A stretch of 59,658 nucleotides of DNA, the filler included. It is 6 parts of 6 records of this genome, joined end to end, with 100 filler letters (N's around TTAATTAATTAA, not from the genome) between each part and the next. Parts side by side here need not be neighbours in the genome. Positions count along the whole stretch, not along the records: positions 1 to 16,635 come from SRR31156797_21619; 5 more parts are not named here. One strand, given 5' to 3'. Below, in pieces: positions 1 to 24,369 of the stretch. Position 1 is the first letter of the stretch, and each line of letters opens with the position of its first letter. The position numbers were made by a program, and so were the translations under genes. Below the pieces are notes generated by a model. The model made no database searches, was not told the DNA's origin, and was given only the letters and a program-made list of their open reading frames with translations.

Positions 1-84
1 AAAATGGAAAATTCCGAATGTATTCTCTGTGGAAACTGTGCCGATGTTTGTCGCAAAAAATGCATTGAATTAAAGTTTAAATAA
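1..84 (+). CDS. 3' end of a 4Fe-4S binding protein (partial)
   Basis: Frame 1 reads KMENSECILCGNCADVCRKKCIELKFK-TAA, containing a CxxCxxCxxxC ferredoxin-type motif. Truncated by the window start. Confidence 0.8.
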   Translation, partial: KMENSECILCGNCADVCRKKCIELKFK

Positions 85-121
85 TTAAAAAACAGAGTGC
101 TAAAAATAATAAACAAATAAA

Positions 122-688
122 ATGAATAAAAAAAACATTCCAAGAACAGGCAGAATAGGACGATATGTGAATATTGTTGAAAGAAAAACAAACGAAGAAA
201 GCTTTTTAAAAATCGTGAACAAATCAGATGAGTACAAAAAATATAATCCGGAAGAAAAAGCCGAATGGTGGAAAAACTCAGTTGTAATACTGGAGAATGA
301 GGTGGGCAGTAATAGTGCTATAGATATAATGAAAACATGTGGAAGCAAATGTTGTGGTAAAGGGAACAGAAATACAGCCAAACGACTTCTAAAAGAATCA
401 ACGACTATAAAGGAATTTCTTCATAGACTTAGTAAATATGAAGTAAAAGAAGGTGAACTTGAATACAAACTTATTAATGAGAACACCATAATTGGAAGAC
501 ACAACAGGTGTTTTTGCGGTCAGGTAAAAAAAACTAAGGAGAATTTCAAAAATGATACCTATTGCCTATGTTCAGTAGAATTTAACAGGCAATTTTTTGA
601 AGCAGCTTTTGAAAGACCAGTTCAGGTGAAGTTGAAACAATCAATTCTTACTGGCGGCAACTACTGCGAATTTGAAATAAAATTTTAA
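122..688 (+). CDS. Cys-rich hypothetical protein (DUF6144/V4R-like)
   Basis: 188 aa with CGSKCC, CFC, YCLCS and a C-terminal SILTGGNYCEFEI typical of V4R-like ligand-binding folds. Confidence 0.6.
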   Translation: MNKKNIPRTGRIGRYVNIVERKTNEESFLKIVNKSDEYKKYNPEEKAEWWKNSVVILENEVGSNSAIDIMKTCGSKCCGKGNRNTAKRLLKESTTIKEFLHRLSKYEVKEGELEYKLINENTIIGRHNRCFCGQVKKTKENFKNDTYCLCSVEFNRQFFEAAFERPVQVKLKQSILTGGNYCEFEIKF

Positions 689-704
689 TATAAAAATAAA
701 TATC

Positions 705-965
705 ATGAATATTCAAAAAACAGAGCAAACAGCTCATCATAAAGCAAAACTAAAAGTTGAATTTCGAATTCACCTGATAACTTACGTGGTAGTGAATTCT
801 TTACTTGTAATTATCAACCTAATCTTTACTCCCGGATATTTATGGTTTATATGGCCACTTTTAGGATGGGGAATAGGAATAGTTTTACATAGAAGAGAGT
901 TAAAATTTCCGCCAAGACAGAGGCTAACGGATCGGTTGATTGAAAAAGAGATGAAAAAACATTAA
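705..965 (+). CDS. 2TM domain protein
   Basis: FRIHLITYVVVN...LWFIWPLLGWGIGIVLH is the 2TM domain signature. Confidence 0.8.
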   Translation: MNIQKTEQTAHHKAKLKVEFRIHLITYVVVNSLLVIINLIFTPGYLWFIWPLLGWGIGIVLHRRELKFPPRQRLTDRLIEKEMKKH

Positions 966-1001
966 ACGAATACATTTAAGAAACTAAAAAAATCAGCAAT
1001 T

Positions 1002-1643
1002 ATGGAACCTAAAAACAAAGAAACATACTGGAGTCAATTTACCTCAGAGTATGAAGAAAAACAAAGTTATGTGGCTGGTAAAGAAGTTATTTCATTAGCC
1101 ATGGAAGAATTATCAACGGAGCTTAACCTGGGGAAAGTTTTAGAACTGGGGTGTGGTACCGGATTATATACTGAAACTTTACAAAAGATTTCAGAAGAAA
1201 TTATAGCAACAGATTTTTCAGAAGAAATGATTGAGGCAGCTAAGCAAAAGAGCGGATATCTTGATAATGTTAGTTTCATGCAGGCAAATGCTCTAAATTT
1301 ACAATTCGATAAAGAAAGTTTTGACACGGTATTTATGGCAAATCTTATACACATTATCGAAGATCCGGAAAAGGCAATTAGGGAGAGTTGCCGTGTGCTG
1401 AAAAGCGGAGGGCAAATTATTATTACTTCTTTTGCAGTTGACCAAATGAGTTTCTTCAACAAAATATCCTTAGCAATACGATATCAAAAAGCATTTGGAA
1501 AACCATCTAAAGAATCATTAAAAGAAAAAACACCAAAAAAAAGAATTGAAAAACTGTTGGTTAATAATGGTTTTAAAATCTCTAAAAGCAAGGTTTTAGG
1601 AAATAAAGAAAAAGCTGTTTATATAAAATGTATTAAAAATTAG
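1002..1643 (+). CDS. Class I SAM-dependent methyltransferase
   Basis: Motifs VLELGCGTG, DFSEEMI, FDTV and RVLKSGG. Confidence 0.9.
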   Translation: MEPKNKETYWSQFTSEYEEKQSYVAGKEVISLAMEELSTELNLGKVLELGCGTGLYTETLQKISEEIIATDFSEEMIEAAKQKSGYLDNVSFMQANALNLQFDKESFDTVFMANLIHIIEDPEKAIRESCRVLKSGGQIIITSFAVDQMSFFNKISLAIRYQKAFGKPSKESLKEKTPKKRIEKLLVNNGFKISKSKVLGNKEKAVYIKCIKN

Positions 1644-1673
1644 AAAAGTGACACGAAAAGAAATATCAAGATA

Positions 1674-2162
1674 ATGGAAACAAAATTCAGAAAAAGCCCG
1701 CCTGTGTGCCTGTTCATTTCAATTATTAGATTACTGACAGGGAAACTTAAATTATCAAAACATTACCTCAAGGATACTGTAAAAATGAAGGATGGTCAGG
1801 AGTACACCATTTTCAGGCATATTACTACATTTCCTGTTAACGATGCTGAACAAGCGGTTACATTTATCGTTCGCTTTAAATTTGCCCGCTTATCGCATAA
1901 TGCAAACAGAATAGCTTCAATAATTCCTATGCTTTTGATTACCGGCTTTCCGGGTTTTCAAACCAAAATGTACGCAGTAAACAAGGAAAATGGCTACTGG
2001 CAGGGAATGTATCAGTGGAAAACCCAAAAGTACCTTGAAGAGTATTTGAAATCCTTTGTGTATAAAATGATGAATAAAAGAGCAACAAAAGAAACAATTA
2101 GTTCCAAGGAGCATAGAAATCAGTTATTAACCAATTATATTGATAATAATAAAATTCTATAA
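1674..2162 (+). CDS. Hypothetical protein, possible YdhR-like dimeric alpha/beta barrel
   Basis: 162 aa ORF co-oriented with the cluster. GFPGFQTKMYAV...WQGMYQW resembles YdhR/monooxygenase barrels. Confidence 0.5.
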   Translation: METKFRKSPPVCLFISIIRLLTGKLKLSKHYLKDTVKMKDGQEYTIFRHITTFPVNDAEQAVTFIVRFKFARLSHNANRIASIIPMLLITGFPGFQTKMYAVNKENGYWQGMYQWKTQKYLEEYLKSFVYKMMNKRATKETISSKEHRNQLLTNYIDNNKIL

Positions 2163-2361
2163 TATTGGAGTTTCAAAGAATCAAATGTGTTCCAACGCAC
2201 TTCAACCATCCCTTCACTTTCAGGCACATTCGGCATTCCTGCAAAGCTTGCTCACAGTCCCAAAATGCCAAAAGAGCCTTCAAGCCCGTCCCGCTCCAAC
2301 GCACAGATAGAGCGACAGTGCATTAATAAACGGATTGATGTTTAAATGAATCAAGGCCAGC

Positions 2362-2492
2362 GTTCAACAATGGGTATGGTTCATTGGCGTGATAGCGGAT
2401 TGCGAGCGTTTGTATTTCAATTTTTCTTATCTTGTAACTTGATAAGTTTGAGCTATGTAATAGCCAACGAAACCATACCCTAACCGTTGGCA
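2362..2492 (+). mobile_element. attC-like imperfect inverted repeat (candidate cassette recombination site)
   Basis: Starts GTTCAAC (fits RYYYAAC) and ends GTTGGCA. The arms GGGTATGGTT-CATTGGC and GCCAACG-AAACCATACCC pair with one extra base. 131 bp, with an internal CTTATC/GATAAG hairpin. Confidence 0.5.
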
Positions 2493-2586
2493 ACAATGTT
2501 AAATAGAAAGCCGATGATTAAATTAAGGCGAATCTCAAAGACAGATTGGAGTTATTAAACGAATTAATAATTTATAGTACAGTAAC

Positions 2587-3222
2587 ATGAGCCCTAAAAT
2601 AATAGCTTTCATTGCTTTAGTGATTACATCCGTATCCTTAACGGGTAATGATTTGTTTCAACTTGCTTTTGGGGATCACTGGACCGATGCTCATAACAAC
2701 ATGGATGGGGCTGTCGAAAAAGTAAAAGCACTGGTCATTAAAACGCTGATACAGGATGGTGACGTGTGGATTGCCGATGCGGGACAATCTGATTTTTCCG
2801 CTGAGCTTGTAGATGCTGTTCAAAAGGAATGGCCTGAAATAGAGACCTCAAAAAGAATACATGTGGTTCAACATGCCGATTGGAATGAAGAGGTAACAAC
2901 GCCTGAAAAGCTGGATTTCGTGAAACAAAATACGGACTATATAAAAATACCGGATGGCAATGGCGTCGGAAACGGAACTCCCGGTTTTCGAACCCCCGAA
3001 TTTACCAATTGGGATGATAAAATTACCAATCCTGATTTGAGGAAAATATGGCAGCTTGCTATTGATCTGTCAAATAAATACAATGGAAAAGATGGCCGTT
3101 ACCACAATGGGGCGATTGCAGCAGGAGGATTAGATTTCTCAGATTTGTCTGAAGTCTGTTGGGTTTTCGGAATTCACGATATTACGGACACCGAGCATTT
3201 TTTTAATCTCTACGCCCAATAA
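2587..3222 (+). CDS. Exported hypothetical protein, possibly internally deleted
   Basis: Signal-peptide-like N-terminus followed by VWIADAGQSDF, HVVQHADWNE, IPDGN and GLDFSD, reminiscent of a nucleoside-hydrolase-like fold. Confidence 0.5.
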   Translation: MSPKIIAFIALVITSVSLTGNDLFQLAFGDHWTDAHNNMDGAVEKVKALVIKTLIQDGDVWIADAGQSDFSAELVDAVQKEWPEIETSKRIHVVQHADWNEEVTTPEKLDFVKQNTDYIKIPDGNGVGNGTPGFRTPEFTNWDDKITNPDLRKIWQLAIDLSNKYNGKDGRYHNGAIAAGGLDFSDLSEVCWVFGIHDITDTEHFFNLYAQ

Positions 3223-3516
3223 TAGGCCATTTAATCCTGATTTTGACTATTGCCGGGTAATCAAACCAACCACTATGGCTCGTTAACTGTTCAAAGCTAA
3301 CCTTTTTTGGTACAGAGCTGAAGTAGCCATTTTTCTCCTATGAAGGTTTCCTGGGCGTCGTTAGGTTACAGGTCAATATTTGCAACACGTTTTAAGCAAT
3401 TTCACAAGGAGTTCCGGCATGTAATGCTAAAATTTTTCGTATGTTTACAGTAATCAAAGCACGTCATAAAGTTTTGGTAGTGAGGTTTACCATTCAACAA
3501 TTAAAAGCAAATTAAG

Positions 3517-5415
3517 GTGGAGGAATCGTTTCAAAAGCAATTAGCAGCGTTAAAAAGGGAAAATTTGCAACTAAAAGAACAGTTGGATTTTGCAAAGAAA
3601 TTTATGGCTAATTCCAATTATTGGGAAACCTATCGGGATAAAACAGGGCAAATTATTTACATTTCCCCGAAACTGGAAGATACGCTTGGCGAAAGAAAAG
3701 AAGCCTATTTAAAGGGAGACATCCAAATTACAGACTTTATCCACGAAGATGATATTGAAAAGACCATCGAAAACTATAAAAAAGTGATGCAGGGGATTGA
3801 TGTTCCACCGATAAAATGCCGTTTGAATAGCACCCTGTCGCTTGAATATGTACTTATTGATTACAAAAGAGTATTGGATGATGATGGCCGGTTGAATGGT
3901 ATCAGAACGTGTATTTCCGACATTACAGAGCTGGAAAAAAAGGAAAGGAATAAACATAACAATGAAGAACTGCTACGGAATACTACAGATCATATTCCGG
4001 CTTTAATTGGGCAAATTGACAATAATTTGAAATACACCTATGTAAATAAAAGGTATGCAGATTATACCGGGATTGAGGCAGACAAGATTATTGGCAGTAA
4101 TGTTATTGACGTTATTTCAGAGGAGACTTTTAAAATATCGCATCCATATATGTTGAGAGCCCTGGCGGGTGAATTTGTAAGTTTTGAAACCAGGTATATT
4201 AACTCGGCCGGAGAGGTTTTTTATTTTGAATCAAACTTTGTCCCTAACAAGAAAAATAATCAGGTTAAGGGTTTCATGGTACTTGCATGGGATATTACCG
4301 AACGAAAAAAAGTGGAACAAGCCTTGAAACAAAGTGAAGAAAAATTCCACACACTATTTTCAGACAGCAGGGTTGTAAAATTGCTTATAAGTGCGCAAAA
4401 AGATGGTAAAATAATTGATGCAAACGAAGCGGCTTCAAATTTTTATGGATATTCAATTGATAAACTTTGCATCATGAAAATAAATCAGATAAATATTTTG
4501 TCTGAAAGTGAAATAAGGGAAAGAATGAACGAAGCAGAGTTGAAAAAACAAAATTATTTTGAATTTAAGCATCGCCTTGCATCAGGCGAAATAAAGGATG
4601 TTGAAGTATTCTCTAATCCTGTAATGATTAACAACGAAAGCGTACTCCACTCTATCATTGTAGATATAACTGAAAGAAAAAAAGCAGAGCATGTCATCAA
4701 AGAAAACCAGGTTCAATTAAAAGAGCTAAATGCTACAAAAGACAAATTATTTTCAATTATTGCCCATGACCTAAGAAGCCCTTTTACTAACATATATTCG
4801 CTCTCTGGCCTGTTAACTGATGACGAAATAGAAATTGATATTTCTAAATCCAGGAGTATCACTGAATTGATTAATTCGGCCGCCAAAAACTCCCTTAGTT
4901 TGCTCGATAACTTATTGAACTGGTCTAAATCTCAAACGGGCACACTCGACAATAACCCCAAAAAAATTGCTTTGTCACACCTTTTGAATAAAATAGAAGA
5001 AGAATTAAACGCACAGGCAGCAGTTAAAAACATTTCATTAAATATTATTCAATCGAAAGAAACGGAAATTTTTGCTGATGAAAATATGGTGAACCTAATA
5101 TTTCGAAACCTGGTTTCGAATGCAATTAAATTTACCAATCAGGGCGGAAGAATTGACGTTATTGCAATTGAAAAGCCGGATGTTGTGGAGATCTCAGTGG
5201 CAGATAATGGTGTTGGTATCCCGGAAGATAAACTTATTCACCTTTTTAAAATAAATTCGGAAGCACAATCTGTTGGTACTGCAAATGAAAAAGGCTCAGG
5301 ATTGGGATTAATACTTTGTAAGGAATTTGTTGAAAAACTTGGAGGAAAGATTTGGGTAGAAAGTATAGTCGGAAAAGGTAGTAATTTCAAATTTACAGTA
5401 CCGTTGCACAAATAA
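3517..5415 (+). CDS. Multi-PAS sensor histidine kinase
   Basis: Three PAS/PAC segments (DITE motifs), H-box IIAHDLRSP, N-box NLVSNAIKF, and G boxes DNGVG and GSGLGL. Confidence 0.95.
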   Translation: MEESFQKQLAALKRENLQLKEQLDFAKKFMANSNYWETYRDKTGQIIYISPKLEDTLGERKEAYLKGDIQITDFIHEDDIEKTIENYKKVMQGIDVPPIKCRLNSTLSLEYVLIDYKRVLDDDGRLNGIRTCISDITELEKKERNKHNNEELLRNTTDHIPALIGQIDNNLKYTYVNKRYADYTGIEADKIIGSNVIDVISEETFKISHPYMLRALAGEFVSFETRYINSAGEVFYFESNFVPNKKNNQVKGFMVLAWDITERKKVEQALKQSEEKFHTLFSDSRVVKLLISAQKDGKIIDANEAASNFYGYSIDKLCIMKINQINILSESEIRERMNEAELKKQNYFEFKHRLASGEIKDVEVFSNPVMINNESVLHSIIVDITERKKAEHVIKENQVQLKELNATKDKLFSIIAHDLRSPFTNIYSLSGLLTDDEIEIDISKSRSITELINSAAKNSLSLLDNLLNWSKSQTGTLDNNPKKIALSHLLNKIEEELNAQAAVKNISLNIIQSKETEIFADENMVNLIFRNLVSNAIKFTNQGGRIDVIAIEKPDVVEISVADNGVGIPEDKLIHLFKINSEAQSVGTANEKGSGLGLILCKEFVEKLGGKIWVESIVGKGSNFKFTVPLHK

Positions 5416-5470
5416 ATAATGAATTATTCGGGATAAATATTGTCCCGGTTAATTGTTTTATCATTACAAT

Positions 5471-5505
5471 AAAAAAGTCCCGAAACCAAACGGTTTCGGG
5501 ACTTT
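5471..5505. terminator. Intrinsic terminator between convergent genes
   Basis: AAAAAAGTCCCGAAACC-AAAC-GGTTTCGGGACTTT perfect stem with an A/T tail. Confidence 0.85.
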
Positions 5506-5524
5506 GCATTAAAGAATTCTAATA

Positions 5525-8359
5525 CTATTTGATTACCACCTGTTTTGTGGTGAATCCTTCATCGGTCATAATTCTGAACATATAAACGCCACTGCTTAGC
5601 TGTGATGTGTTGATGCTGCATTCGTTTCCGGCAGCATACGCGTTTATTACGAGGTTGCCCATGTAATCGAATACCATAACCTTACTCAGATTATTGGCTA
5701 CGCTAATGTTAACCACATCTCTTGCCGGGTTCGGGTAAATGCTTATGCTTTCGGTATTGTTGATATCCTGGCCAAGTCCTGTTGGTACAATATCCCAACC
5801 TTCGCCAAAGCAAACGTCATCATAGAAAGCACCCGGTGTTCCGCCAACATCCCATCCGTAGTAGTCTATTCCGCCAATGGATGTAGCTACATCCCACTGG
5901 TAGAACCATTCGCCGTCGAACCATACCTCGCCAAGACCCATATCAAGGTCAAAAGCTACCTCAACAAAAATCCAGGTATCCGGTGTGTAGGTAAAATCAA
6001 CGTCAATGGTATTTTGTGTTACAGTTCCGGTTCCATCATCATTAAAGAACAACTCAACTACCCATTCCTGCCCTGGAGTGGGGTCGGATTGAACATTGAA
6101 ATATCCTGAAAATCCTGCAGGAATATAAATGTTGTTTGAGTATACCCATTGTCCTTCAGTAATAGGTTCATCAGCCAGTTTTAGTACAAGGTCGATTGTA
6201 CCGGCATCTATGGCAAATGAATTGGATCCGCTGTGTGCATGCATATCGCTGACAAAGGCATCTTCTGAGCCGCCGGGTGCACCGCTCCAGGTAGTCCAGG
6301 GGTCACCCAACTGTTCGGCAACATATCCGCCAACGGTCAGATCATCAAAATACTCACAGGCATCATTCTCGAACAACTGTTCAAAACAAATATCATCAAA
6401 ATGGGCTCCGGCAGGTGCTCCTCCGGTACCCGGATTTGCATAAATATTTGAACCTGCAAGGGTATTGGCTCCCGCAGTACCAAATGTACCGAGTGTCCAC
6501 TGGTATTCATGTGATAGTACGCCATCTATATACAACTGGCACCAGTCATTGTCCAGATCTACAACCACTTCATGGTTGATCCATGTGTCATACTCGAAAG
6601 GTTGTACCAAAGCTGCGGCACCACCGCCATCAACAACGATTGTTCCGTCATCTTCAAACATTACCTGGAAGCCCCATTCTGTTCCCGGAACCACATCTTT
6701 TTGCAGGTTGTAGTAACCGGCTGTTCCTGTTGGAACATAAATATTCAGGCTATAGCTCCATTTGCCGGAGGTGATATTATTCCCTGTAATCAAATGAACA
6801 AGGTCTGTTGATCCTTCAACAAGAATTGAGTTTGAAGGCGATGTGGAATATAAATCAGAAACAACAGCATCTTCGTCGCCACCGGGAGCTCCACTCCAGG
6901 TTGTCCAGTTGCCGCCCAATTGTTCGGCTGCATAGCCACCAACTGTGAGGTCATCAAAACCTTCACAATCGCCGGAGGGTGGAGGTGGAGGAGGGCCACC
7001 GATACTGAAAGGGGTGAACTCTTCAGATCCAAACTCGCCACCTTCCATAAATACCACACTCTCTTCATCCATCAATTTGTAATATCCTATACCGTAAGAG
7101 CAGCAAATGCCGTCGCCATAAGCATCAAAAATGGCAAATGTGTAACAATCGTCATCTGCAAATTCAAAAGTTTCATTGAAAATAGTTCCCGGCTGCCCGG
7201 TGTAAGGTCCGCCGCTGTAAACTACATCTCCTGCTGAATTGGTAACCTCCCAGGTTGTTTCTTCAGGGTAGTTATCGGTTTTTAATTCGAAAAGTACAGT
7301 TGAGGTAGATACTGCGAAAGCAGCTTCAAAGGTACCTTCAAACGTGTCGTTGTCGGGATTTGGATCTGCCTGTCCGTTAGGATTACTTACCGTAAATTCA
7401 AATGTATTAACCGGTTGTGATACAAATTCAATTTCCGGAAGAGTAACATCTTCACTTATGTTAAATGCCAGCTCACCGGTCCATGCATAAGTTCCCGTAG
7501 TACCACCATTGATCGAATATTCAATATCCAGGCTGGTAAGTGGTTCAGCTCCCATGTTTTTAATGGTAACAACAGGCTCAACTGTATTTCCACAGTATTC
7601 GCCAACAGGGTGTTTCAGGGCTTTTGCCTCAGCATCAATGTTATATACTGAAATGGCCATGAATTTTTGAGTCCCCTGTAGAATTTCTTTTGTGCCATTG
7701 TCCTGAACAAATGCTACCATTGAGCAATTATCCGTATCCCAATAGCTGGTATTAAAGTCAAGTTCGATAACTTGCGTGTCGCTACCTGAAAAATCGAGTG
7801 CTGTTCCGTTTTGGCTTGGAACCATCAGGCGGTTTACCCAGTCCTGTTCATCCATTCCACCCCAAACGATAGGTAGTTTTGATTCAGTAATTACAAACTG
7901 AAGAACCAAGTTGGAGGAAGTGTTACCACCTACATTTTCAACAGTTACAACGGCATGGTAATCACCGTCGGTTTCTTCGAATTCAATACCGATCGTAAAG
8001 TCTGACGGGACTTCAAGACGTGGTTCTATTATTCCGGCAGCCGTTGGTGCCCAATTATTAATACCACCAACAATTTCCTGGATACCATCAAATTTGTAAG
8101 TTGGATACCCGGTAATACCATAATAGTTATTACGGGCATTTGAGTAAACGTTGGCTAACGAATCACCATTGTGGTTTTCGATAACAACAACATCATATCC
8201 GTCTTCGACAATTTCTACTGCTCCTTGTGCAGCTGTCGGGCAGAAGCCTCACCAAAAGCCGGTTGCTCCTTCAATAACGACAACGTCGCGCTCTACCTGC
8301 TGGGCGTGAAGGAAAATACCCAACAAAAGTGTTAACATTAGTGTAAATAAATTTTTCAT
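5525..8359 (-). CDS. T9SS-secreted Omp28/thioredoxin-like protein, probable selenoprotein (in-frame TGA at codon 37, UxxC), 944 aa
   Basis: ATG at 8359 gives MKNLFTLMLTLLLGIFLHA-QQVERDVVVIEGATGFW-[TGA 8251-8249]-GFCPTAAQG...YGITGYPTYKFDG, in frame with the tracked ORF 7909-5525. C-terminal T9SS type A signal ISIYPNPARD...LSSGVYMFRI...KQVVIK. Confidence 0.8.
8203..8248 (-). promoter_or_regulatory. Candidate bacterial SECIS hairpin 3' of the in-frame UGA
   Basis: mRNA CGACA-GCUGC-[ACAAGGA]-GCAGU-(AGAAAU)-UGUCG. The apical loop starts after a 20-nt spacer from the UGA. Folded by eye only. Confidence 0.35.
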
Positions 8360-8406
8360 ACCTGAAATTTTGATTGATTAAAAATTAATAGTCTAATTAA
8401 CATATG

Positions 8407-8414
8407 CAAATGTA
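8407..8414 (-). promoter_or_regulatory. Bacteroidetes-type -7 promoter element
   Basis: TACATTTG (TAnnTTTG) about 50 nt upstream of the ATG at 8359, supporting that start. Confidence 0.5.
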
Positions 8415-8937
8415 TGAATCCTTGATGGTATAAAAACAACAAGATGATAATTTGGAATGATTCTGAATCAGCCACTTAATAAGCATTAAATCCCCTATCA
8501 AAATGGTACTGCACTTAAGAAGGCTTATTGATGGCTGGCTTCCCTTTTTCAGGTATTTGATCACTTCTTCGAAAATTGTAAATCGTTCAGTTCACACCAG
8601 AAGGGCACCAAAAAAAATGATCATGGCCAGGATAAGACTTTTGTTCAATTTCATGAAAGTCCGGTTTTTGCTCAACAGGATTAAAGTAGCGCATTTGGCT
8701 TACCCCCCAAAAAAATTTCCTGACGGAGTTCATTTAGATGTATATAGAAATTGGCCATATTTGATTTGAATGGTGTTCTCAATCTTCTGGGTTATAACCT
8801 GAATGTTTCAATCACAAAACGGGGCAGTCCGTCCTGACCAAAGTTTAAAACACAGGATGCAAAAAGGCTGCTAACCGGGTAGGTTTGTTTGCAGATTTAT
8901 GATTAGACTTGCAGCCTGAATTTGCAAATTAAAAAAC

Positions 8938-9747
8938 ATGAAGTATTTAAGAATTTTTCCACTGTTGGTGTTATTGATTTTGATGATTGCCTGTATAAAC
9001 GACAAAGCGGATGAAAATGAAGCAAAGACCATAAACCCTAAAGAAGCTGTGCTTGGTAAATGGGTTCGGCAAGGCCCGGGAGGAAAAGCAAGCCTTGCTT
9101 TTAAAGAAAACAATCGTGTTGAAATTGATATGAAACAGGATGGTGAAGTTGAAGTGGTTTCGGAATACGTGGTAAAAGGTAATACCATAGAAATTACTGA
9201 TGTTGAAGGACAAAAGTGCCCGGGCACCGGAATTTATGATATCACATTTGGGGAACATTACGTGGGTTTGGATATGTTGATGGATAGTTGTTTTGGACGT
9301 GTGAGGGCGACTATGGGTTTCTGGACACGGCCCAACTATGCTGATATCATCCTTGACCTTGATCAGGCCATTGGAAAAACAAAAAATCCGGAACTGCTAC
9401 TGGAAAGAGCCAGGATATATGTTGCCATTGGCAAGGCCCCTGAGGCAAAGGCAGATTTTGAATCATATGTTAAAACAGATTCTACCGACGCCTATGTTTT
9501 TATGAACCTGGCGGGGACATGCTTTCCACATGATCTTCCCGGGGTGATTAAAAACTGTACAAAGGCCCTGGAACTGGACCCGAATGATAAAAATTCCTAT
9601 TTCATGCGCGGACTGGCAAAATACGACCTTGGGCAAAGGGAGGAAGCCTGCGATGATATCCAGCGTGCCATTGAGCTTGGCTTCAACTTTATTGCCCCGG
9701 CAATCTCAAGCCGGTGCAACGAATTTTGGAATCAGGAGCAGGAGTAA
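8938..9747 (+). CDS. Lipoprotein with C-terminal TPR repeats
   Basis: Lipobox-like LMIAC. TPR pattern KALELDPNDKNSYFMRGLAKYDLG...EACDDIQRAIELG. Confidence 0.8.
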   Translation: MKYLRIFPLLVLLILMIACINDKADENEAKTINPKEAVLGKWVRQGPGGKASLAFKENNRVEIDMKQDGEVEVVSEYVVKGNTIEITDVEGQKCPGTGIYDITFGEHYVGLDMLMDSCFGRVRATMGFWTRPNYADIILDLDQAIGKTKNPELLLERARIYVAIGKAPEAKADFESYVKTDSTDAYVFMNLAGTCFPHDLPGVIKNCTKALELDPNDKNSYFMRGLAKYDLGQREEACDDIQRAIELGFNFIAPAISSRCNEFWNQEQE

Positions 9748-9767
9748 TGTTGAGCCTGAGCTCGCTG

Positions 9768-9983
9768 TTATTGATCAAGCAGCCATTTCCAAACAGGAAC
9801 GATCGATACTCCTAATCCATCTTCATTAAAACGGTCTTCCTGATCATATGTCAGGATTAGGCCATTTTTCAGGTTCAGGCTTTTCAGGGCATCAGTCAGC
9901 CCGCTGATTTCACGTTTTTGATTGTCAGGATTTAGCTCAAAACAAACCTGTATAGCTGCTGATAAAGAATTTTTATCTGGATA
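9768..9983 (-). pseudogene. C-terminal remnant of a COG1373/DUF4143-type AAA+ ATPase
   Basis: The minus frame reads AIQVCFELNPDNQKREISGL...GLILTYDQED...IVPVWKWLLDQ-TAA. There is an in-frame stop immediately upstream and no start codon. Confidence 0.7.
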
Positions 9984-10181
9984 TCAATAGTTTATATTAC
10001 TAATATACAAAAATGCATATTGCTAATGCAAACTATCAACAAACGCAGTGAATCTCAATTGATGTGATACATCCGGAATTGCATAATGTGTGATGGCTTT
10101 TCACGGGAAAATCAGGCATAAACCAACCGGGTGCTTTTCAGGTTAATAATCATCAATGAAAGTAGATCGTTCGTAAATCCA

Positions 10182-12161
10182 CTAGCCTGCCATCTCTTTT
10201 TCAACTTCCTTCACCAGCTCTTTCATCGAAATATTGCCAACTGCCGAATTGCGAAGCTGTCCCATGGCCCAGTTAACTGCATCCTGTGGTTTATTGGAAT
10301 TTTTAATTTTTTCAAACTTTTCTTTCAGGAAAGGAATCTTAGCTAAAATATCAGCTTGTGGGTACCTTTTGAATTTGATGGTTGTCAGCACCGATTCAAA
10401 TTCCATCTTTGGGTGCTCATACACTTCCGCAATCATATCCCTGGCCAGCTCTGCATCCAGTTTTTCAGCCACAAGGAAAGCAAAAAGATCATAAATCACC
10501 TCATAGCTGAATTGCGCTGTTGGAGTGTGGTGGCCTTCCACATATTTCATCGTGTGCCCCACAAATGTTCCGGCAAAAACCGGGTCAACGTTTAGTTCTT
10601 TAATGATGCGTTCGATGATGGGAAACAGGTTTTTTGTGAAGATAAAAGTATAGGCATCCTCCGGTATTTTCCATGCTTTCATTTTCTGATAGCGGTCAAT
10701 TACATCTTCCGGCAGGTTTTGCGACAGTTTTGTAATCCGTTCTTCGGTAAGTGGGATTGGTGGAGAATCCGTGTCGGGATACATGCGGTCGGCACCCGGA
10801 AGCACACGCTCGAAGATGGTGGTACCATCCTCGAAAGATTTCCTGGTCTCGTTGGGTACACCCTCAAAGGCCATCCTGCATCTCTCTTCAACGGTTTCAA
10901 GTGCGGTCACCAAATCTTCATCGGGCCCCCAGATTATCAGTTGTGCATCGTCATCCCCGGCTTTAAACATTTCGCGAATGCTGTTAAAATCTTTGGCCGA
11001 AATAACAGGATCAAATTCCTCGCTATGCGTCATATTGGGTTTTTCCAGGCAGGCAATTACCTTGAGCCTGTCGGCAAATTCATCCGAAAACACTTTACCG
11101 GGTTGGGTAAAGTGCGAAAGGATTCCTTTGAAATGTGGCAGGTTCACGGCCAGTATCCTGTTGCCTTCTTTTTTCGAGCCCACCAGCGGTTCATAGGTAA
11201 AATTGTATGAATGGAATTTCAGATACTGATGCCTGGGTTGCCACCTTTTGATGTCTTTGATGCGGTTTTTCAATTCATCCCGGATGGCCAGCAGTGCCCA
11301 CTGCCTGAAACATTCGTTGTGGGTCAACTCCGGGATCCATTTGGTATGTGCCACGCCTTTTATTTCCACCCGGCTACCACCGCGGCAGCTCACGTTTACA
11401 TCCTCACGGCCGGCACCCATGCCTGTACGCACCTTGCCTGTGCTTCGGTTCAGGAATCGGATGTAATCGCAGGCTTCCTGAACTTCATCAGGATTTTCAC
11501 AATCCGGGTAGGTTACCGTTTCGATCAGGGGCATCCCGAGGCGGTCGGTTTTGTAAGTTCTGATGTGGCCAACATCCGAAATCTCACGGCAGGAGTCCTC
11601 TTCAAGGCTGAGCTGGATCAGGCGGATCTTCTTATTTTTCAGTGGAATTTCCCCTTCTACGCCGATGATAGCTGTCCGCTGAAAGCCGGTTGGGATGGAG
11701 CCGTCAAGATACTGTTTTCGTGTTATATGCACTTCGCCAACAATGTTCAGTTTTGAAAGTAGCGATATGGCTATCGAGATATCCAGTGCCTCTTTGTTTA
11801 GCGGAAATGGTGGGGTATCGTCAACCTCATAGGTGCAGGTGGTGTCGTGCTTAACCCGGTAGATGATCTCTTTTTTGGTTTTGAACTCCATCAGCGCAGT
11901 TCCGTCATATTCTCCCAGCTCACTCAGCGTTGGGCGCATGTGGCGGATGAGCTCGGCATCGTAATCTTCACTCTGGTGGAATACGCCGGCAGGGCAGTTA
12001 CAGAAAAGCTTTTTGCCGGTGAGAAGTTGTTGGTGTACTTCAAGGCCCGACATGAATCCAATTCTGTCGTAATCCTTTTGTGTGGCTTGCTTGCGTGTTA
12101 CATAGCCGATATGTTTACGTGTAGTTTCGTAGTTATTCTTCGGATTAAATTTCTGTTTCAT
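10182..12161 (-). CDS. gatE: Archaeal-type Glu-tRNA(Gln) amidotransferase subunit E
   Basis: GLEVHQQL, RPTLSELGEYD, DGSIPTGFQRT, DRLGMPLIE, REDVNVS, RVEIKGV, GVPNETR, PGADRMYPDTD and the AspRS-like (GAD) insertion distinguish GatE from GatB. Confidence 0.85.
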   Translation of the reverse strand: MKQKFNPKNNYETTRKHIGYVTRKQATQKDYDRIGFMSGLEVHQQLLTGKKLFCNCPAGVFHQSEDYDAELIRHMRPTLSELGEYDGTALMEFKTKKEIIYRVKHDTTCTYEVDDTPPFPLNKEALDISIAISLLSKLNIVGEVHITRKQYLDGSIPTGFQRTAIIGVEGEIPLKNKKIRLIQLSLEEDSCREISDVGHIRTYKTDRLGMPLIETVTYPDCENPDEVQEACDYIRFLNRSTGKVRTGMGAGREDVNVSCRGGSRVEIKGVAHTKWIPELTHNECFRQWALLAIRDELKNRIKDIKRWQPRHQYLKFHSYNFTYEPLVGSKKEGNRILAVNLPHFKGILSHFTQPGKVFSDEFADRLKVIACLEKPNMTHSEEFDPVISAKDFNSIREMFKAGDDDAQLIIWGPDEDLVTALETVEERCRMAFEGVPNETRKSFEDGTTIFERVLPGADRMYPDTDSPPIPLTEERITKLSQNLPEDVIDRYQKMKAWKIPEDAYTFIFTKNLFPIIERIIKELNVDPVFAGTFVGHTMKYVEGHHTPTAQFSYEVIYDLFAFLVAEKLDAELARDMIAEVYEHPKMEFESVLTTIKFKRYPQADILAKIPFLKEKFEKIKNSNKPQDAVNWAMGQLRNSAVGNISMKELVKEVEKEMAG

Positions 12162-12195
12162 TTTTGGTTTTGGCCGAATTAGTAATTTTGGGCAT

Positions 12196-12203
12196 CAAAT
12201 GTA
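12196..12203 (-). promoter_or_regulatory. Bacteroidetes-type -7 promoter element upstream of gatE
   Basis: TACATTTG on the minus strand about 35 nt before the gatE ATG. Confidence 0.45.
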
Positions 12204-12341
12204 CGTAATCTTAACCAAAAGATGAGCTAAAAACGGCCGGCTGTTTCAGACTTTTGGATTTATTTTTTTTTCGCTTATGAAATGAAATTGCACTTTTGTT
12301 TGGATTATACTAATTTTACAGGAAATTAAAATCATATCATT

Positions 12342-13121
12342 ATGAATAGTTCAGGAATATTAAAAGTTATCCTCGTGGTTGTTGGCCTTGCAGTAATTGG
12401 GGGCCTGGTATATTATTTTTTACTGAATCCCGGAAATAAATTCGACAGAACTTTGAAAAAAGCCGATCAGTATTTTGCCGAACAGCAATACCAGGAAGCT
12501 AAAAAACTCTACAGCGAGGCTGTAACGATCAAAGATGATGAAGTCTATCCCAAGCAGCAACTTTTCACCATCGATAGCATTCAACGGAAACTTGAACTGG
12601 ACATAAAATATGACGAAAAAGTTCAAAAAGCTGATCTGTTATACAGCCAGGCTGAATACCTGGAGGCAAGTAAATTTTATTTTGATGCACTCAACGTAAA
12701 GCCTGACGAAGACTATCCGGTGGAACAGATCAAGAAAATTCAGGAGTTGCTTGAAGATCCCGATTTTGAAAAAAAACAAAAAGAATTTGCCGCTTCAAAA
12801 GCGAAGCAACCGGCAGCTACCAAGAAGCAGGAACCCAAAACCCAATCAAAACCCACTACACAAAAACCCATGCGAACTAATGCTGACGGCAAATACTTTC
12901 ATGTGGTTGTCGGCGTTTTCGATAATCATGACAACGCAATTAAAATGCGCGATAAAATGATTGAAATGGGGAAGGAGTCGATCATTATCCAGCGGCCCGG
13001 CGACTTAGAAGCGGTTACTTTTGGATCATACGAAAAGCTTAATACAGCGTTTAACTTCCTTGAATTTGTTCGAAACGATATCGCTGCAGATGCCTGGGTA
13101 CTTTATGATAAAACTAACTAA
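12342..13121 (+). CDS. Membrane-anchored TPR-like + SPOR domain protein
   Basis: N-terminal TM helix, two YPxxQ-ended helical repeats, a low-complexity linker, and a C-terminal FHVVVGVF...NA...DAWV SPOR pattern. Confidence 0.75.
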   Translation: MNSSGILKVILVVVGLAVIGGLVYYFLLNPGNKFDRTLKKADQYFAEQQYQEAKKLYSEAVTIKDDEVYPKQQLFTIDSIQRKLELDIKYDEKVQKADLLYSQAEYLEASKFYFDALNVKPDEDYPVEQIKKIQELLEDPDFEKKQKEFAASKAKQPAATKKQEPKTQSKPTTQKPMRTNADGKYFHVVVGVFDNHDNAIKMRDKMIEMGKESIIIQRPGDLEAVTFGSYEKLNTAFNFLEFVRNDIAADAWVLYDKTN

Positions 13122-14682
13122 AATAGGTGTTTCCTCACCCGGCCAACGCACATTAGTGCTGCTTTTCTTCCTTTCATTTTTTTTCTTTCTTCACACGATT
13201 GCCCCGGCACAGAACAAAGCCAAAATTCGGATTGTGCAGGCTGATGACCTGCTGGGTAATCAAACAGATGAAGATGAACTGAATATTTTTACCGGCAACG
13301 TGATTTTCGAACACGACAGCGCTTTCCTTTACTGTGACAGCGCCGTGCTTTACAGCAAAAAAAACAGTTTGGAAGCACACGGGAATGTGCATATTAAAAT
13401 GAGCGATACACTTAACCTGTTTGGTGATGAACTTGAGTATGACGGGAATACACGCGTTGCTATCGTAAAGCGTAATGTGATCCTTGAAGATAACGATGCT
13501 ACCTTGTACACTGACAGGTTGTTCTACGACCGAAAAGTTGATGTTGCATATTACTATTCAGGGGGTAGGATCATCAACGAGGACAACGAACTTACCAGCC
13601 TCATAGGAAATTACAACACCGGCTTGAAAAGGGTTTACTTCCAGGAGGATGTTCAACTGGTAAACCCTGAATATTTGCTGAGGTCGGATACCCTGATTTA
13701 TAATACGGCGCAGGAACTCGCTTACATCCAGGGCCCGACAACCATTACAGGTAAAGATGAAAAACTCTACTCTGAAAAGGGTATGTATAATACGGTTACG
13801 AACTTTACACGCCTCGAGCTGAATTCGCATATGACCTACAAAGAGCAATACCTTTCCGGTGACAGTATTATTTATGATAAAACTTCTGGAGTAGGCAAAG
13901 TATTTGGGGATGTTTTTATTAAAGATTCTGTGAAAGATATTATCGTTACCGGACAATATGCCGACTATCGTCGAAAAGACGGGTTTGCCTACGCCACCGA
14001 CAGTGCCGAGGTGATCATGATCGACAAAACAGATAGTCTCTTCATGCATGCCGATACGCTTTGGCTTACCTTTGACAGCACCGAAAGCCCGGAAAAATTG
14101 CTGGCCTACCACAAATGCAAATATTACAAAACCGACCTTCAGGGTATGACCGATTCGCTGGTTTACTCCTTTGCCGACTCCACCATCACCATGTATTTCG
14201 ATCCGTTGATATGGACGCAGGGCAACCAGCTTTCGGCAGAGCTGATTAAAATATTTTCATCCAATCAGCGGGTGGATTCCATGCACATGACCAATTCTTC
14301 GTTTATCATTTCTCAGGACGATTACGATACGGTGCAGTTCAATCAGATCAAGGGCAAGGATATGGTGGCTTATTTCGAAGAGAATGAATTGAACCTGGTA
14401 ACGGTGAACGGCAACAGCGAAACCATTTATTTTGTGCGGCAGGAAGATGGGGCTTTGATAGGCATAAACAAGGCTGTGGCCAGCAGCATGGAAATCTGGA
14501 TCAGTGAAAGGCAGGTGGAGGATATTTATTATTTCGACAGCCCTGATGCCCAGCTTTACCCGGAGTCGGAGCTACCCGCCGACCAGTATTATCTGCGCGA
14601 TTTCCGCTGGCAAAGCGATGACCGGCCGGGGAACAGGTATGATATTTTTAATTGGCCGGCTGACAGGCCCGCATTGCGATAG
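13105..14682 (+). CDS. OstA-like (LptA/LptD N-terminal beta-jellyroll repeat) protein
   Basis: GNVIFEHDSAFLYCDSA, LYTDRLFYDR, DSLFMHADTL and NQIKGKDM match the Bacteroidetes OstA-like family. Start placed at ATG 13105 (uncertain). Confidence 0.8.
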   Translation: MIKLTKIGVSSPGQRTLVLLFFLSFFFFLHTIAPAQNKAKIRIVQADDLLGNQTDEDELNIFTGNVIFEHDSAFLYCDSAVLYSKKNSLEAHGNVHIKMSDTLNLFGDELEYDGNTRVAIVKRNVILEDNDATLYTDRLFYDRKVDVAYYYSGGRIINEDNELTSLIGNYNTGLKRVYFQEDVQLVNPEYLLRSDTLIYNTAQELAYIQGPTTITGKDEKLYSEKGMYNTVTNFTRLELNSHMTYKEQYLSGDSIIYDKTSGVGKVFGDVFIKDSVKDIIVTGQYADYRRKDGFAYATDSAEVIMIDKTDSLFMHADTLWLTFDSTESPEKLLAYHKCKYYKTDLQGMTDSLVYSFADSTITMYFDPLIWTQGNQLSAELIKIFSSNQRVDSMHMTNSSFIISQDDYDTVQFNQIKGKDMVAYFEENELNLVTVNGNSETIYFVRQEDGALIGINKAVASSMEIWISERQVEDIYYFDSPDAQLYPESELPADQYYLRDFRWQSDDRPGNRYDIFNWPADRPALR

Positions 14683-14684
14683 CC

Positions 14685-14719
14685 AAAAAAAATCCGGATG
14701 GTTTAACCATCCGGATTTT
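14685..14719. terminator. Bidirectional intrinsic terminator
   Basis: AAAAAAAATCCGGATGGT-TTA-ACCATCCGGATTTT between convergent genes. Confidence 0.85.
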
Positions 14720-14746
14720 ATTAAATTGAATTATCCTGACCCGAGA

Positions 14747-14914
14747 TTATTCGGGGTGAATTGCCTCTACCGGACAAACGTCAGCGCAAGCACCACAGTC
14801 AGTGCAAGCATCAGGATCAATTTTGTAGATTTCGCCCTCTGAGATAGCCTCAACAGGACACTCATCAATGCAAGTACCACATGCGGTACAATCATCTGTG
14901 ATTACGTAAGCCAT
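14747..14914 (-). CDS. 2[4Fe-4S] ferredoxin (55 aa)
   Basis: MAYVITDDCTACGTCIDECP...CTDCGACADVCP contains two CxxCxxCxxxCP motifs. True start is ATG 14914. Confidence 0.95.
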   Translation of the reverse strand: MAYVITDDCTACGTCIDECPVEAISEGEIYKIDPDACTDCGACADVCPVEAIHPE

Positions 14915-15068
14915 TTTTCTAACGTTTTTAAGTTTATAGAATCCGTGCAAAGTTGAAAATTATTTCTTTTTAAAGGTTTCTAAATTGGGTTTTTACGGAA
15001 ATTTATAGCCAGTCTAAATTGGGGTTCAGGTTTCTAATGTACTTGAATTGAGGATTTTTAGAAATAAT

Positions 15069-15231
15069 GTTGTCAACTCACTGCGTTCGTGTTGTCATTG
15101 TTGTTGATTCGCTCTGCTCATGTTATTTACTCACTGCGTTCGTGTTGTCATTGTTGTCGATTCGCTCTGCTCATGTTGTCAACGACAACCCGACAACAAC
15201 GACAACCTGACAACAACAACAACCTGACAAC
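15069..15231. repeat. Composite tandem/inverted intergenic repeat
   Basis: A 49-bp unit is duplicated at 15076-15124 and 15129-15177 (one mismatch) and is rich in GTTGTC. It is followed by a run of complementary GACAAC units at 15181-15231. Confidence 0.85.
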
Positions 15232-15268
15232 TTTTTCTTACCTTTCCCCCATCTCCATCCAATTTCAC

Positions 15269-15276
15269 TAATTTTG
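15269..15276 (+). promoter_or_regulatory. Bacteroidetes-type -7 promoter element upstream of hutU
   Basis: TAATTTTG (TAnnTTTG) 35 nt before the hutU ATG. Confidence 0.45.
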
Positions 15277-15311
15277 CCACTCTAATCACAAAAATTAAAA
15301 TTCCGGATATC

Positions 15312-16635
15312 ATGACTGATTTTCAAAATGCCGTACTGCAAGGGATTCCAGAGGTTCTCCCCGTACCCAAAACGTTTGATGCATCTGTTTCGCATGCGCC
15401 CAAACGCAAGGCAATCTTATCACACAACGAAAAGAAACTGGCCCTGAAAAATGCATTGCGTTATTTCGATCCAAAACATCATAAAGTGCTGGCTCCTGAG
15501 TTTGCAGTTGAGCTTGAAAAATACGGCCGTATATATATGTATCGTTTCCGTCCGGATTATGAGATGTATGCCCGCCCCATAGAAGAATATCCTACGAAAA
15601 GCAGGCAGGCCGCTGCCATCATGCTCATGATCCAGAACAACCTGGACCCGGCAGTGGCACAGCATCCCCACGAATTGATCACTTACGGGGGAAATGGGGC
15701 GGTTTTCCAAAATTGGGCGCAATACCTGCTCACCATGCAGTACCTGGCCCAAATGACGGACGAGCAAACCCTGGCCATGTATTCGGGGCACCCCATGGGA
15801 TTGTTTCCATCGCACAAGGATGCACCAAGAGTTGTGGTTACCAACGGCATGGTCATCCCCAACTATTCCAAACAAGACGACTGGGAAAAGTTTAACGCAC
15901 TGGGTGTTTCACAGTATGGCCAAATGACGGCAGGCTCCTATATGTACATCGGCCCACAGGGCATCGTTCATGGGACCACCATTACGGTTTTAAATGCTGG
16001 TCGTAAACTGGCCGGAAAAGCTGATGATGGCCTTGGGGGTAAGTTGTTTGTAACATCCGGATTAGGAGGGATGTCAGGCGCTCAGGCCAAGGCTGCCGTG
16101 ATTGCCGGTGCAGTGGGTGTGATTGCTGAAGTAAACGAAGCGGCAGCAGTCAAGAGGCATTCACAAGGCTGGGTGGATGAACTGTTTTACAATCTGGATG
16201 AAATTATCGCCAGGATACGAAAAGCCAAAGCCGGAAAAGAATCCGTATCGCTGGCTTTTGTGGGCAACATTGTTGACCTTTGGGAAAAAATTGTTGAGGA
16301 GGATATTTTTGTGGAGCTGGGCTCCGACCAGACTTCTCTGCACAATCCCTGGGCCGGAGGTTATTATCCTGCCGGACTTTCGTTTGAAGAATCCAACAAA
16401 ATGATGGCCGATGATCCTGAGCAATTCAAGGTAAAAGTACAGGAATCCCTGAGGCGGCATGTGGAGGCCATCAATAAACTCACTGCAAAGGGCATGTATT
16501 TCTTCGACTATGGCAATGCGTTTCTGCTGGAATCCAGCCGCGCCGGTGCCGATATTCTGAAAGAAAACGGTGATTTCAAATATCCCTCCTACGTGCAGGA
16601 TATTATGGGCCCCATGTGTTTTGATTATGGATTTG
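15312..16635 (+). CDS. hutU: Urocanate hydratase, long form (partial, cut by contig end)
   Basis: NNLDPAVAQHPHELITYGGNG, YGQMTAGSYMYIGPQGIVHGT, GLGGMSGAQ, SDQTSLHN and FDYGNAF. Confidence 0.95.
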
Positions 16636-16735
16636 NNNNNNNNNNNNNNNNNNNNNNNNNNNNNNNNNNNNNNNNNNNNTTAATTAATTAANNNNNNNNN
16701 NNNNNNNNNNNNNNNNNNNNNNNNNNNNNNNNNNN
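16636..16735. other. Artificial contig spacer
   Basis: N44-TTAATTAATTAA-N44, which places stops in all six frames. Confidence 0.98.
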
Positions 16736-16771
16736 CTCGCTGAACCAGCATCTTGAGGTTACTTGGGTATA
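16736..16771. repeat. End of an ERIC-like Vibrio intergenic repeat at the contig edge
   Basis: ...GCATCTTGAGGTTACTTGGGTATA resembles the terminal inverted repeat of ERIC/IRU elements and would explain the assembly break after potC. Confidence 0.6.
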
Positions 16772-16814
16772 ATCATTTAACTGATGATTTCAAATGTTTT
16801 AAATATTAGTAGAG

Positions 16815-17585
16815 TCACTTTACTTTTTCTCTTGCCAGTAGCTGTGACGTCACTACTAACACGAGTGAAACGACTAACATCACGGTTGCAAGGGCATTAA
16901 CCTCTGGTGAAATTCCCACTTTAACCATCGAATAAATTTTCAGTGGCAGAATTTCATAAGTCGGCCCGGTCACGAATGAGCTGATAATCACGTCATCCAG
17001 TGAAAGAGTAAAACTCAGCAACCAACCCGCAGCAACCGCAGGTTTCGCCAAAGGTAAGATAATTTTCTTCAAAATTACCCATTCACTGGCACCGAGGTCT
17101 TTCGCCGCTTCTAACATTTTGACGTCAAAGCCGTTCAAACGACTAAACACAGTGACAACGACAAAAGGTAGACAGAAGGTAATGTGAGCAACTAAAAGAG
17201 TCATAAAACCGAGTTTCGCACCCAGCACCAAAAACAGTGCCAATAACGAAATCGCCATGACGATATCAGGAGACATCATTACAACAAACAGCATACCGTT
17301 AACCATGTTTTTACCACGGAACTGATAACGGAATAGGGCAACTGCGGTAAGGCTACCAATAATGGTTGCTGCGGTCGCAGAGAACACTGCGACATTGATT
17401 GAGTGCCATGCGGCTTGCATTAAACTGTCGTTATTGACTAAAGCGTGATACCACTTGGTGGTAAATCCACCCCATTTGATACCAAACTTATTGTCGTTAA
17501 ATGAGTTAGCAATTAATACGATGATTGGTAAGTACAGGAACAAGTACACCAAACTCATAAAGCTAAATCTAACTGTTTTTCCCAT
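16815..17585 (-). CDS. potC: Spermidine/putrescine ABC permease PotC
   Basis: FLYLPI, EAAKDLGA and FTLSLDDVIIS motifs, plus operon order. Confidence 0.95.
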   Translation of the reverse strand: MGKTVRFSFMSLVYLFLYLPIIVLIANSFNDNKFGIKWGGFTTKWYHALVNNDSLMQAAWHSINVAVFSATAATIIGSLTAVALFRYQFRGKNMVNGMLFVVMMSPDIVMAISLLALFLVLGAKLGFMTLLVAHITFCLPFVVVTVFSRLNGFDVKMLEAAKDLGASEWVILKKIILPLAKPAVAAGWLLSFTLSLDDVIISSFVTGPTYEILPLKIYSMVKVGISPEVNALATVMLVVSLVLVVTSQLLAREKVK

Positions 17586-19541: not shown

Positions 19542-19885
19542 CGTCTGTCTTTCTCCACCTTGGTCTATAGAAGAAAATCTACAAATCTGACCTGTTAGTT
19601 AAGCAACAAAATATGCGCGCATCATAATCACGAAGAACGCGAACTCAAAGCATTTTCTTATCTTGAAACATAAAAAATTTTGCAGTTAAAACTAAAGATT
19701 CTTTACCATAACAAGTATGATAACTACCAATGCTTTCAACTGGTTAATTATCAACCATAGCATAAAGAAAGCAAGATGCTTTTCGAGATCGGATTTAAGA
19801 CTGACCAGCATTTAAGTATAATGATTTAAAACTAAACGTCGTCGTATGACCGATATACGTACTACAAGCCAAATTAGGGCAAAAT

Positions 19886-22165: not shown

Positions 22166-22168
22166 CAC

Positions 22169-24363: not shown

Positions 24364-24369
24364 TGATGT

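Follow-up and report, generated by a model that had tools for sequence, protein, structure and literature searches.

UxxC selenoproteins, in which selenocysteine (Sec, U) replaces the first cysteine of a CxxC motif, have been predicted in the thioredoxin superfamily since 2008. In that year, Zhang and Gladyshev described GOS_C, a UxxC family of thioredoxin-like fold with 312 Cys homologs alongside 74 Sec sequences, and with hairpins resembling the Sec insertion sequence (SECIS) (PMC2398784; this paper and the others cited below are drawn on in excerpt). GOS_C has since been tabulated with the model NF045500 and a UxxC motif (PMC13188914). Other bacterial UxxC selenoproteins of thioredoxin fold include DsbA-like, thiol-disulfide isomerase-like and redoxin families (PMC9312934, PMC13188914). 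A further point of comparison is HBP35, the Porphyromonas gingivalis haemin-binding protein of 35 kDa, whose thioredoxin activity is abolished by mutating both active-site cysteines, which binds haemin, and for which a growth defect under haemin limitation is reported (PMC2907840). HBP35 is brought to the cell surface by the Por/type IX secretion system (T9SS) and carries the anionic lipopolysaccharide (A-LPS) modification (PMC3120885). The gene considered here lies on the minus strand at positions 8359 to 5525 of a 59,658-nt stretch of joined metagenome contigs (the window). Comparative sequence evidence makes it very likely that this is one gene for a 944-residue secreted selenoprotein in which UGA codon 37 is read as Sec.

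The frame opens with an ATG at 8359-8357 and is interrupted only by a TGA at 8251-8249, within the codons TGG-TGA-GGC-TTC-TGC-CCG. Read through, it yields 944 residues with U37 as the only codon that deviates from translation table 11; the peptide at the site is VVIEGATGFW-U-GFCPTAAQ, and YGITGYPT follows at residues 80-87. The longest open reading frame (ORF) under table 11 is 5525..7909, which begins with TTG and encodes 794 aa without a signal peptide. A hydrophobic N-terminus ending LHA/QQ, a putative signal peptide common to relatives, is present only when the TGA is read through. The initial annotation had described this frame, a TTG 7909 ORF with a T9SS C-terminal signal and no signal peptide, and the signal-peptide-like N-terminus, UxxC and YGITGYPT segments restored by read-through, and each of these was found again on the minus strand. 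Its central proposal, Sec in the UxxC of a T9SS-tagged Omp28/thioredoxin-like protein from a Bacteroidales-like organism, is supported by the codons of 126 related loci and by the sel genes of relatives. The features on which this reading turns are the following.

5525..8359, minus strand: full predicted selenoprotein gene of 944 codons before a TAG stop, broken in frame by a single TGA; alignments with relatives span this TGA and cover residues 1-240.
8249..8251, minus strand: TGA codon 37, read as Sec, the first position of U37-G-F-C40; aligned with TGA or TGC/TGT in relatives.
8240..8242, minus strand: Cys40, the predicted resolving cysteine of the UxxC; invariant in a 100-sequence alignment (A4).
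7661..8299, minus strand: Omp28/HBP35-like thioredoxin-type domain, residues ~21-233, with P86 in YGITGYPT as the cis-Pro candidate; matched by NF045500 and PF11551, and its family profile matches HBP35.
8206..8238, minus strand: SECIS-like hairpin that begins 10 nt after the UGA; 5+5 bp, capped by a 7-nt apical loop (ACAAGGA) whose start lies 20 nt after the UGA.

Relatives carry either TGA or a cysteine codon at the position of codon 37. The tally of TGA against TGY in homologs, proposed in the initial annotation, gave TGA at 47, TGC/TGT at 78 and GAT at one of 126 related loci, with peptides conserved on both sides of the TGA. These comprise 79 metagenome loci (TGA 23, TGC/TGT 55, GAT 1) and 47 loci from Bacteroidales species genomes (TGA 24, TGC/TGT 23); the 24 TGA loci of the latter represent 23 distinct places, as L086 and L113 are the same place. 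The proteins of the TGA-bearing loci are 33-81% alike. Of the 401 Bacteroidales species genomes sampled, homologs at E<=1e-25 occur in 80, and among the matches listed one TGA was found inside 23, in 11 genomes. At all 23 places the TGA aligns to the first Cys of the CxxC. Several TGA paralogs may occur in one genome (G071 5, G119 4, G344 4, G239 2, G313 2). A Cys-form paralog adjoins a TGA-form paralog on one contig of G239 (G239:C167:14641-18175), a natural Sec/Cys pair.

The family comprises 1476 representatives at E<=0.001 in a protein search. Cys occupies the aligned position in 164 of the 187 homologous proteins compared. Most proteins of more than 50% identity start downstream of the site (12) or print W at it (two database relatives), which is what gene callers yield at an in-frame TGA; a protein of 52% identity (P0047) has D. 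The latter and locus L021 (match 2501-3157) stand for one clade relative, with GAT (Asp) at the Sec/Cys codon and Ser for the second Cys (...AFWDPYSPGAA...), in which the redox site has apparently been lost and the domain kept. A single-protein search of genome contigs returned just one distant Cys homolog, L001. A maximum-likelihood tree was built from 114 unique domain sequences with the trait column removed. The candidate falls in a 25-row clade of TGA forms only (SH-aLRT 94) that branches from among Cys forms. At least 6 changes of the Sec/Cys label are needed on the tree, and 3 of these are forced by well-supported branches.

The genomes that hold TGA forms also encode the machinery for Sec. 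A selA gene scored above cut-off in 45 of the 401 sampled Bacteroidales genomes and in all 11 genomes with listed TGA forms, for which simple arithmetic gives chance odds of ~1e-11, a figure that treats related genomes as if they were independent. The five genomes named above all have selB and selD above cut-off. The gene for tRNA-Sec is over the gathering score in four of them, and G344 has a partial 38.5-bit match beside selA. In the other four, tRNA-Sec, selA, selB and selD form one compact single-contig cluster (G239:C53:9638-14762, G119:C38:22178-27267, G071:C5:40954-46085 and G313:C7:69246-74945). An additional selB-like match passes the cut-off in G119, and a 742-aa frame of G071 contains an additional selD-like match. 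Because selA exceeds its cut-off in 45 of 401 genomes, Sec use in Bacteroidales is a minority trait but not an exotic one. The earlier statement that Sec use is uncommon in the phylum therefore holds as to a minority trait and is otherwise overstated.

The RNA immediately 3' of the TGA is constrained beyond its coding content. The hairpin at 8238-8206 folds with -9.3 kcal/mol (z -2.74; equalled by 2 of 200 shuffles), and its upper 4-bp helix was predicted independently by RNAalifold on 20 unique TGA forms. Because the stretch encodes conserved residues (CPGAALGA), Cys forms with nearly the same peptide served as controls. Of the unique TGA forms, 19 of 20 can form every pair of the upper helix, compared to 10 of 46 among the unique Cys forms. 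Loop position 24, which is the first loop base and the third position of an Ala codon, is A in 20/20 TGA forms and 8/46 Cys forms; loop position 30, the last loop base and the third position of a Gly codon, is A in 19/20 and 12/46, respectively. Third-position entropy at the four-fold codons 44 and 46 is 0.43 and 0.81 in TGA forms (n=43) versus 1.72 and 1.87 in Cys forms (n=71), and averages 1.62 at 33 other four-fold sites of the same TGA-form sequences. Synonymous-site constraint at the hairpin is restricted to TGA forms. Pair 21-33 joins two synonymous sites; 16 sequences have U-A there, 4 have A-U, and none breaks the pair. Its covariation score was matched by none of 500 shuffles. Distant TGA paralogs with other peptides after the UxxC still have a hairpin 13-17 nt after the UGA. 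The published bacterial SECIS (bSECIS) model has a loop of 3-9 nt with G in its first two positions, a stem of 4 bp or more, a spacing of 16-37 nt and a minimum free energy (MFE) of -7.5 kcal/mol or lower (PMC13188914). The hairpin agrees with that model, as excerpted, in its 7-nt loop, its stem, its spacing of 20 nt and its energy, but not in the G at the start of the loop. The case for a putative SECIS element is one of synonymous-site constraint and one covarying pair, not of fit to a consensus. A permissive Rfam scan of 8150-8300 returned chance-level matches only.

Several results weigh against this reading of the gene and its hairpin. The loop ACAAGGA lacks G at positions 1-2 and thereby departs from the bSECIS model excerpted from PMC13188914. 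Of the TGA forms, 33 of 43 contain some hairpin within the generic bSECIS constraints, but so do 63 of 71 Cys forms; these constraints therefore do not discriminate, and energy does not separate the two groups either (mean MFE -11.3 kcal/mol in TGA forms, -12.1 kcal/mol in Cys forms). The 71-nt fold around the TGA has a z of only -0.17. The register of the lower helix is not constant between subclades; kept to one register, the helix is only 78.8% paired. A covariance model (R1) built on the 70-nt stretch was tried and set aside; it gave 74-89 bits to held-out close TGA forms, at most 62 bits to Cys forms and 16-65 bits to distant TGA paralogs, and it mostly follows coding similarity, not structure. 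The TGA forms are kin to each other, and counts across them are not counts of independent events. The Pfam Thioredoxin match is weak (E 0.19). Finally, the presence of Sec machinery in the candidate's own genome is presumed from relatives only: selA, selB and selD are absent from the genes of the whole window, in which the tRNA scan found no tRNA gene and no Rfam family reached its gathering score.

Among described proteins, the candidate comes nearest to GOS_C/NF045500 and HBP35. The best NCBIfam match of the N-terminal domain is NF045500, 'Omp28-related selenoprotein', with 54.8 bits for the whole protein (residues 25-233) and 58.2 bits for the domain alone. NF045500 also matches 12 of 13 clade members, and the candidate appears to share with GOS_C the same domain and the same class of UxxC placement, the Sec positions being compared by description in the excerpted paper. 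However, the candidate is far below the model's 200-bit cut-off, and the best score in the five genomes with TGA forms is 92.8 bits. The candidate clade also has long lectin-like modules and a T9SS tail, which the excerpts on GOS_C do not mention. At E<=1e-30, none of 802 Bacteroidota genomes (401 Bacteroidales and 401 from a phylum sample) yielded a true NF045500 member. Given the scores below cut-off and the lack of true members in the sampled genomes, the Bacteroidales clade is therefore taken as a separate branch.

The Omp28 and HBP35 families are likewise related at a distance. The domain matches both Omp28 models below their cut-offs, PF11551 with 30.0 bits over residues 76-231 (gathering score 34.9) and NF033782, the Omp28 family outer membrane lipoprotein, with 30.5 bits over residues 19-232 (cut-off 150); three of seven clade relatives scanned pass the PF11551 gathering score (P0044 41.1, P0191 43.2 and P0110 52.3 bits). 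Unlike the Omp28 family, the candidate has a signal-peptidase-I-type N-terminus and a T9SS tail, with no lipoprotein signal. The family profile (A1) matches HBP35 (PDB 5Y1A) with E 1.7e-6 in two stretches, one of them VVLEVFTAEWCGYCPG; the WCGYCPG motif region and a later beta-rich part of HBP35 are those matched. HBP35 and the candidate have in common a thioredoxin-like motif and a C-terminal domain. The similarity is distant, covering 19-23 residues around the motif and ~90 residues later, and HBP35 has Cys instead of Sec, is 344 residues long and lacks the two lectin-like modules. Neither C40 nor P86 varies in the 100 aligned relatives (A4), and the Sec position is Cys in at least 90% of them. 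The putative thioredoxin fold is supported by the motif together with the homology to HBP35 and GOS_C.

As predicted for the candidate, the other bacterial UxxC selenoproteins have Sec in place of the initial Cys of a CxxC within a thioredoxin-type fold, and their Cys homologs are common, but they are separate families, none of them described as T9SS cargo in the excerpts of PMC9312934 and PMC13188914. These 2022 and 2026 reviews, as excerpted, do not list a T9SS-tailed Bacteroidales family of this kind. A literature search returned no link between Omp28 and selenoproteins, and a full-text search returned no relevant work joining selenoprotein and type IX secretion. The novelty claimed earlier for this class of selenoprotein is reduced, as the superfamily had already been predicted to contain UxxC (GOS_C, PMC2398784) and HBP35, T9SS-exported and thioredoxin-active, had been characterised. 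The candidate is best seen as a divergent member of a superfamily with predicted UxxC selenoproteins; it almost certainly encodes selenocysteine, a result that is solid rather than surprising.

The remaining parts of the protein bear on its predicted route to the surface.

8303..8359, minus strand: putative Sec-type (secretory) signal peptide, residues 1-19 (MKNLFTLMLTLLLGIFLHA, then QQ), read from the sequence; homologs have matching hydrophobic N-termini ending AQ/AQQ.
6950..7654, minus strand: middle region, residues 236-470, with a YGDGICCSYGIGYY motif; sub-threshold family matches, and the same region in relative P0039.
5720..6952, minus strand: two tandem modules of ~190 aa, tentatively concanavalin A/LamG-like; 47% identical to each other over 193 aa (E 3e-46).
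5531..5740, minus strand: T9SS type A C-terminal sorting domain, residues 874-943; PF18962 55.5 bits (cut-off 27) and TIGR04183 51 bits (cut-off 23).

The family scan of residues 236-470 gave only sub-threshold CBM_2 (E 0.046) and choice_anch_D (E 0.015). Laminin_G_3 reaches only E 0.0096 in the tandem modules here and 110 bits in clade relative P0174. The T9SS tail is present in 6 of the 7 clade relatives scanned, and the middle modules differ among them (PKD, GEVED, LamG).

Taken with the codon and RNA evidence, this architecture suggests the following course. Translation would start at ATG 8359, and at UGA codon 37 the hairpin at 8238-8206 would recruit SelB and Sec-tRNA(Sec) to decode it as Sec. 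The signal peptide would direct export through the inner membrane by the Sec translocon, with cleavage after Ala19. The new N-terminal Gln would suit formation of N-terminal pyroglutamate, a habit of Bacteroidetes. The C-terminal sorting domain would then pass the protein to the T9SS and on to the cell surface, where it would be anchored. There, the N-terminal HBP35/Omp28-like thioredoxin-type domain may carry out thiol-disulfide exchange through U37-x-x-C40, and the lectin-like modules may hold the presumed substrate or a surface partner. HBP35 would be the functional analog.

It is possible, if somewhat short of probable, that Sec-using Bacteroidales export through the T9SS a whole set of UxxC HBP35/Omp28-like selenoproteins with varied lectin, PKD and GEVED fusions. 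Such a set would form a selenium-dependent redox layer on the surface, decoded through a lineage-specific SECIS loop, A-Y-W-W-G-G-A, that is off the bacterial consensus. This proposal is based on five genomes, each with 2-5 TGA paralogs, and on a minimum of 3 Sec/Cys switches on the tree.

Alternatively, the protein may be a real selenoprotein and yet not a thiol-disulfide oxidoreductase, the UxxC serving instead to capture a ligand (haem, metal, polysulfide or selenium) or to remove peroxide at the surface. HBP35 lends this some plausibility, as its excerpted description has it binding haemin and aiding growth under haemin limitation besides its thioredoxin activity (PMC2907840). An extracellular electron donor is not evident, and the attached modules vary among relatives (PKD, GEVED, LamG), which suggests binding. 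However, WCxxCP with the conserved Pro (C40 and P86 both invariant) is a thioredoxin-type redox signature, and a thiol-based redox function is what the GOS_C paper, as excerpted, proposes (PMC2398784). A ligand or peroxide role is thus considered improbable, if less so than the alternatives that follow, and thiol-disulfide exchange by a surface selenoprotein is the preferred reading.

A recent nonsense mutation is far less probable. On that account the TGA terminates translation, and the product is truncated and without a signal peptide, or is not made. The 794-aa TTG 7909 ORF that table 11 gives would be such a product, truncated forms of this kind are in the databases, and the shorter cytoplasmic HBP35 products reported in PMC2907840, as excerpted, mean that internal starts are not unheard of in the family. 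However, in 47 of the 126 related loci, with proteins only 33-81% alike, the matching codon is also TGA, and the frames are open and conserved on both sides. The occurrence of selA in every one of the 11 genomes with listed TGA forms and the synonymous-site constraint 3' of the TGA also speak against a pseudogene and for Sec.

General recoding of TGA as Trp or Gly (code 4 or 25), which would make the site W/GxxC, is less probable still. None of the 11 ORFs of the contig that carries the candidate ends in TGA (7 TAA, 4 TAG), and two database relatives print W at the site. However, the other 10 ORFs have no in-frame TGA, and many would be expected under either code. The family frames of relatives carry a single TGA, exactly at the Cys position, in genomes with Sec machinery. 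The printed W is most simply a caller's code-4 reading, as a close metagenome relative (L002) has TGA, and the same presumably applies to P0003.

The chance that the TGA is an assembly or sequencing error for TGT or TGC is negligible: the stretch is a metagenome assembly whose sole full-length match, run X1, is probably its source sample, but the separate assembly of that run agrees over 7700-8700, and TGA is likewise found in the clade's 24 remaining members, which come from other samples and genomes. The assembly of run X1 gave one 16,614-base contig with 0 differences in that region and a mean word depth of 350, and base 8249, for which read support had been called for, is identical. Since run X1 is probably the same sample, this argues against a low-coverage error and is not independent support. 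Run X2 has a small share, two short pieces over 8150-8247 that end before the TGA and are uninformative on the codon; run X3 gave no matching piece.

A practical consequence of an in-frame Sec codon is that the gene is mis-called in public data, where clade members appear as N-terminally truncated 'hypothetical proteins' without signal peptide and active site. The prediction that standard gene callers would miss the gene is borne out by these truncated or unnamed database forms. Annotation pipelines will keep missing the clade because the curated NCBI model does not reach it. With the candidate, the GOS_C/Omp28-related selenoproteins would gain a large Bacteroidales branch that has multiple paralogs and a type IX secretion tail. 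If the reading is correct, Sec acts outside the cell, on the surface of anaerobes, and HBP35 offers a ready experimental model for the function of such a site. What is known of Sec decoding and of the folds that use Sec is unchanged by the candidate.

The window consists of six joined pieces (1-16635, 16736-35923, 36024-42030, 42131-49201, 49302-54439 and 54540-59658) with 100-base spacers, N's around TTAATTAATTAA, at 16636-16735, 35924-36023, 42031-42130, 49202-49301 and 54440-54539. The proportion of G+C ranges from 0.41 to 0.57 across the pieces, and the other five are separate contigs with a composition unlike that of piece 1, which carries the candidate gene and is Bacteroidales-like. Pieces 2-6 hold gammaproteobacteria-like genes (PotABC, Fnr, UspE, TtcA, ccoNOP/cbb3 oxidase, CysDN). 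The six pieces are not treatable as one genome. Frames joined by one or two TGA elsewhere in the six pieces include none with a redox motif.

Two piece-1 neighbours of the candidate gene have orthologs in all five Sec-using Bacteroidales genomes (G071, G119, G344, G239 and G313), with 67-71% and 43-49% identity, and piece 1 therefore comes from a relative of those organisms. At the end of piece 1, a plus-strand hutU gene (urocanate hydratase, 15312-16635) is cut by the piece end, with profile positions 12-340 of 545 matched; the ORF is listed to 16691, extending into the spacer. A GatD-like gene was not recognised beside the GatE-type gene at 10182-12161 on the minus strand. GatE is usually considered archaeal. 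The 659-aa protein encoded there scores above the cut-off of archaeal-type GatE models (NF003107, 483.5 bits against 456) and has orthologs of 67-71% identity in all five Bacteroidales genomes searched.

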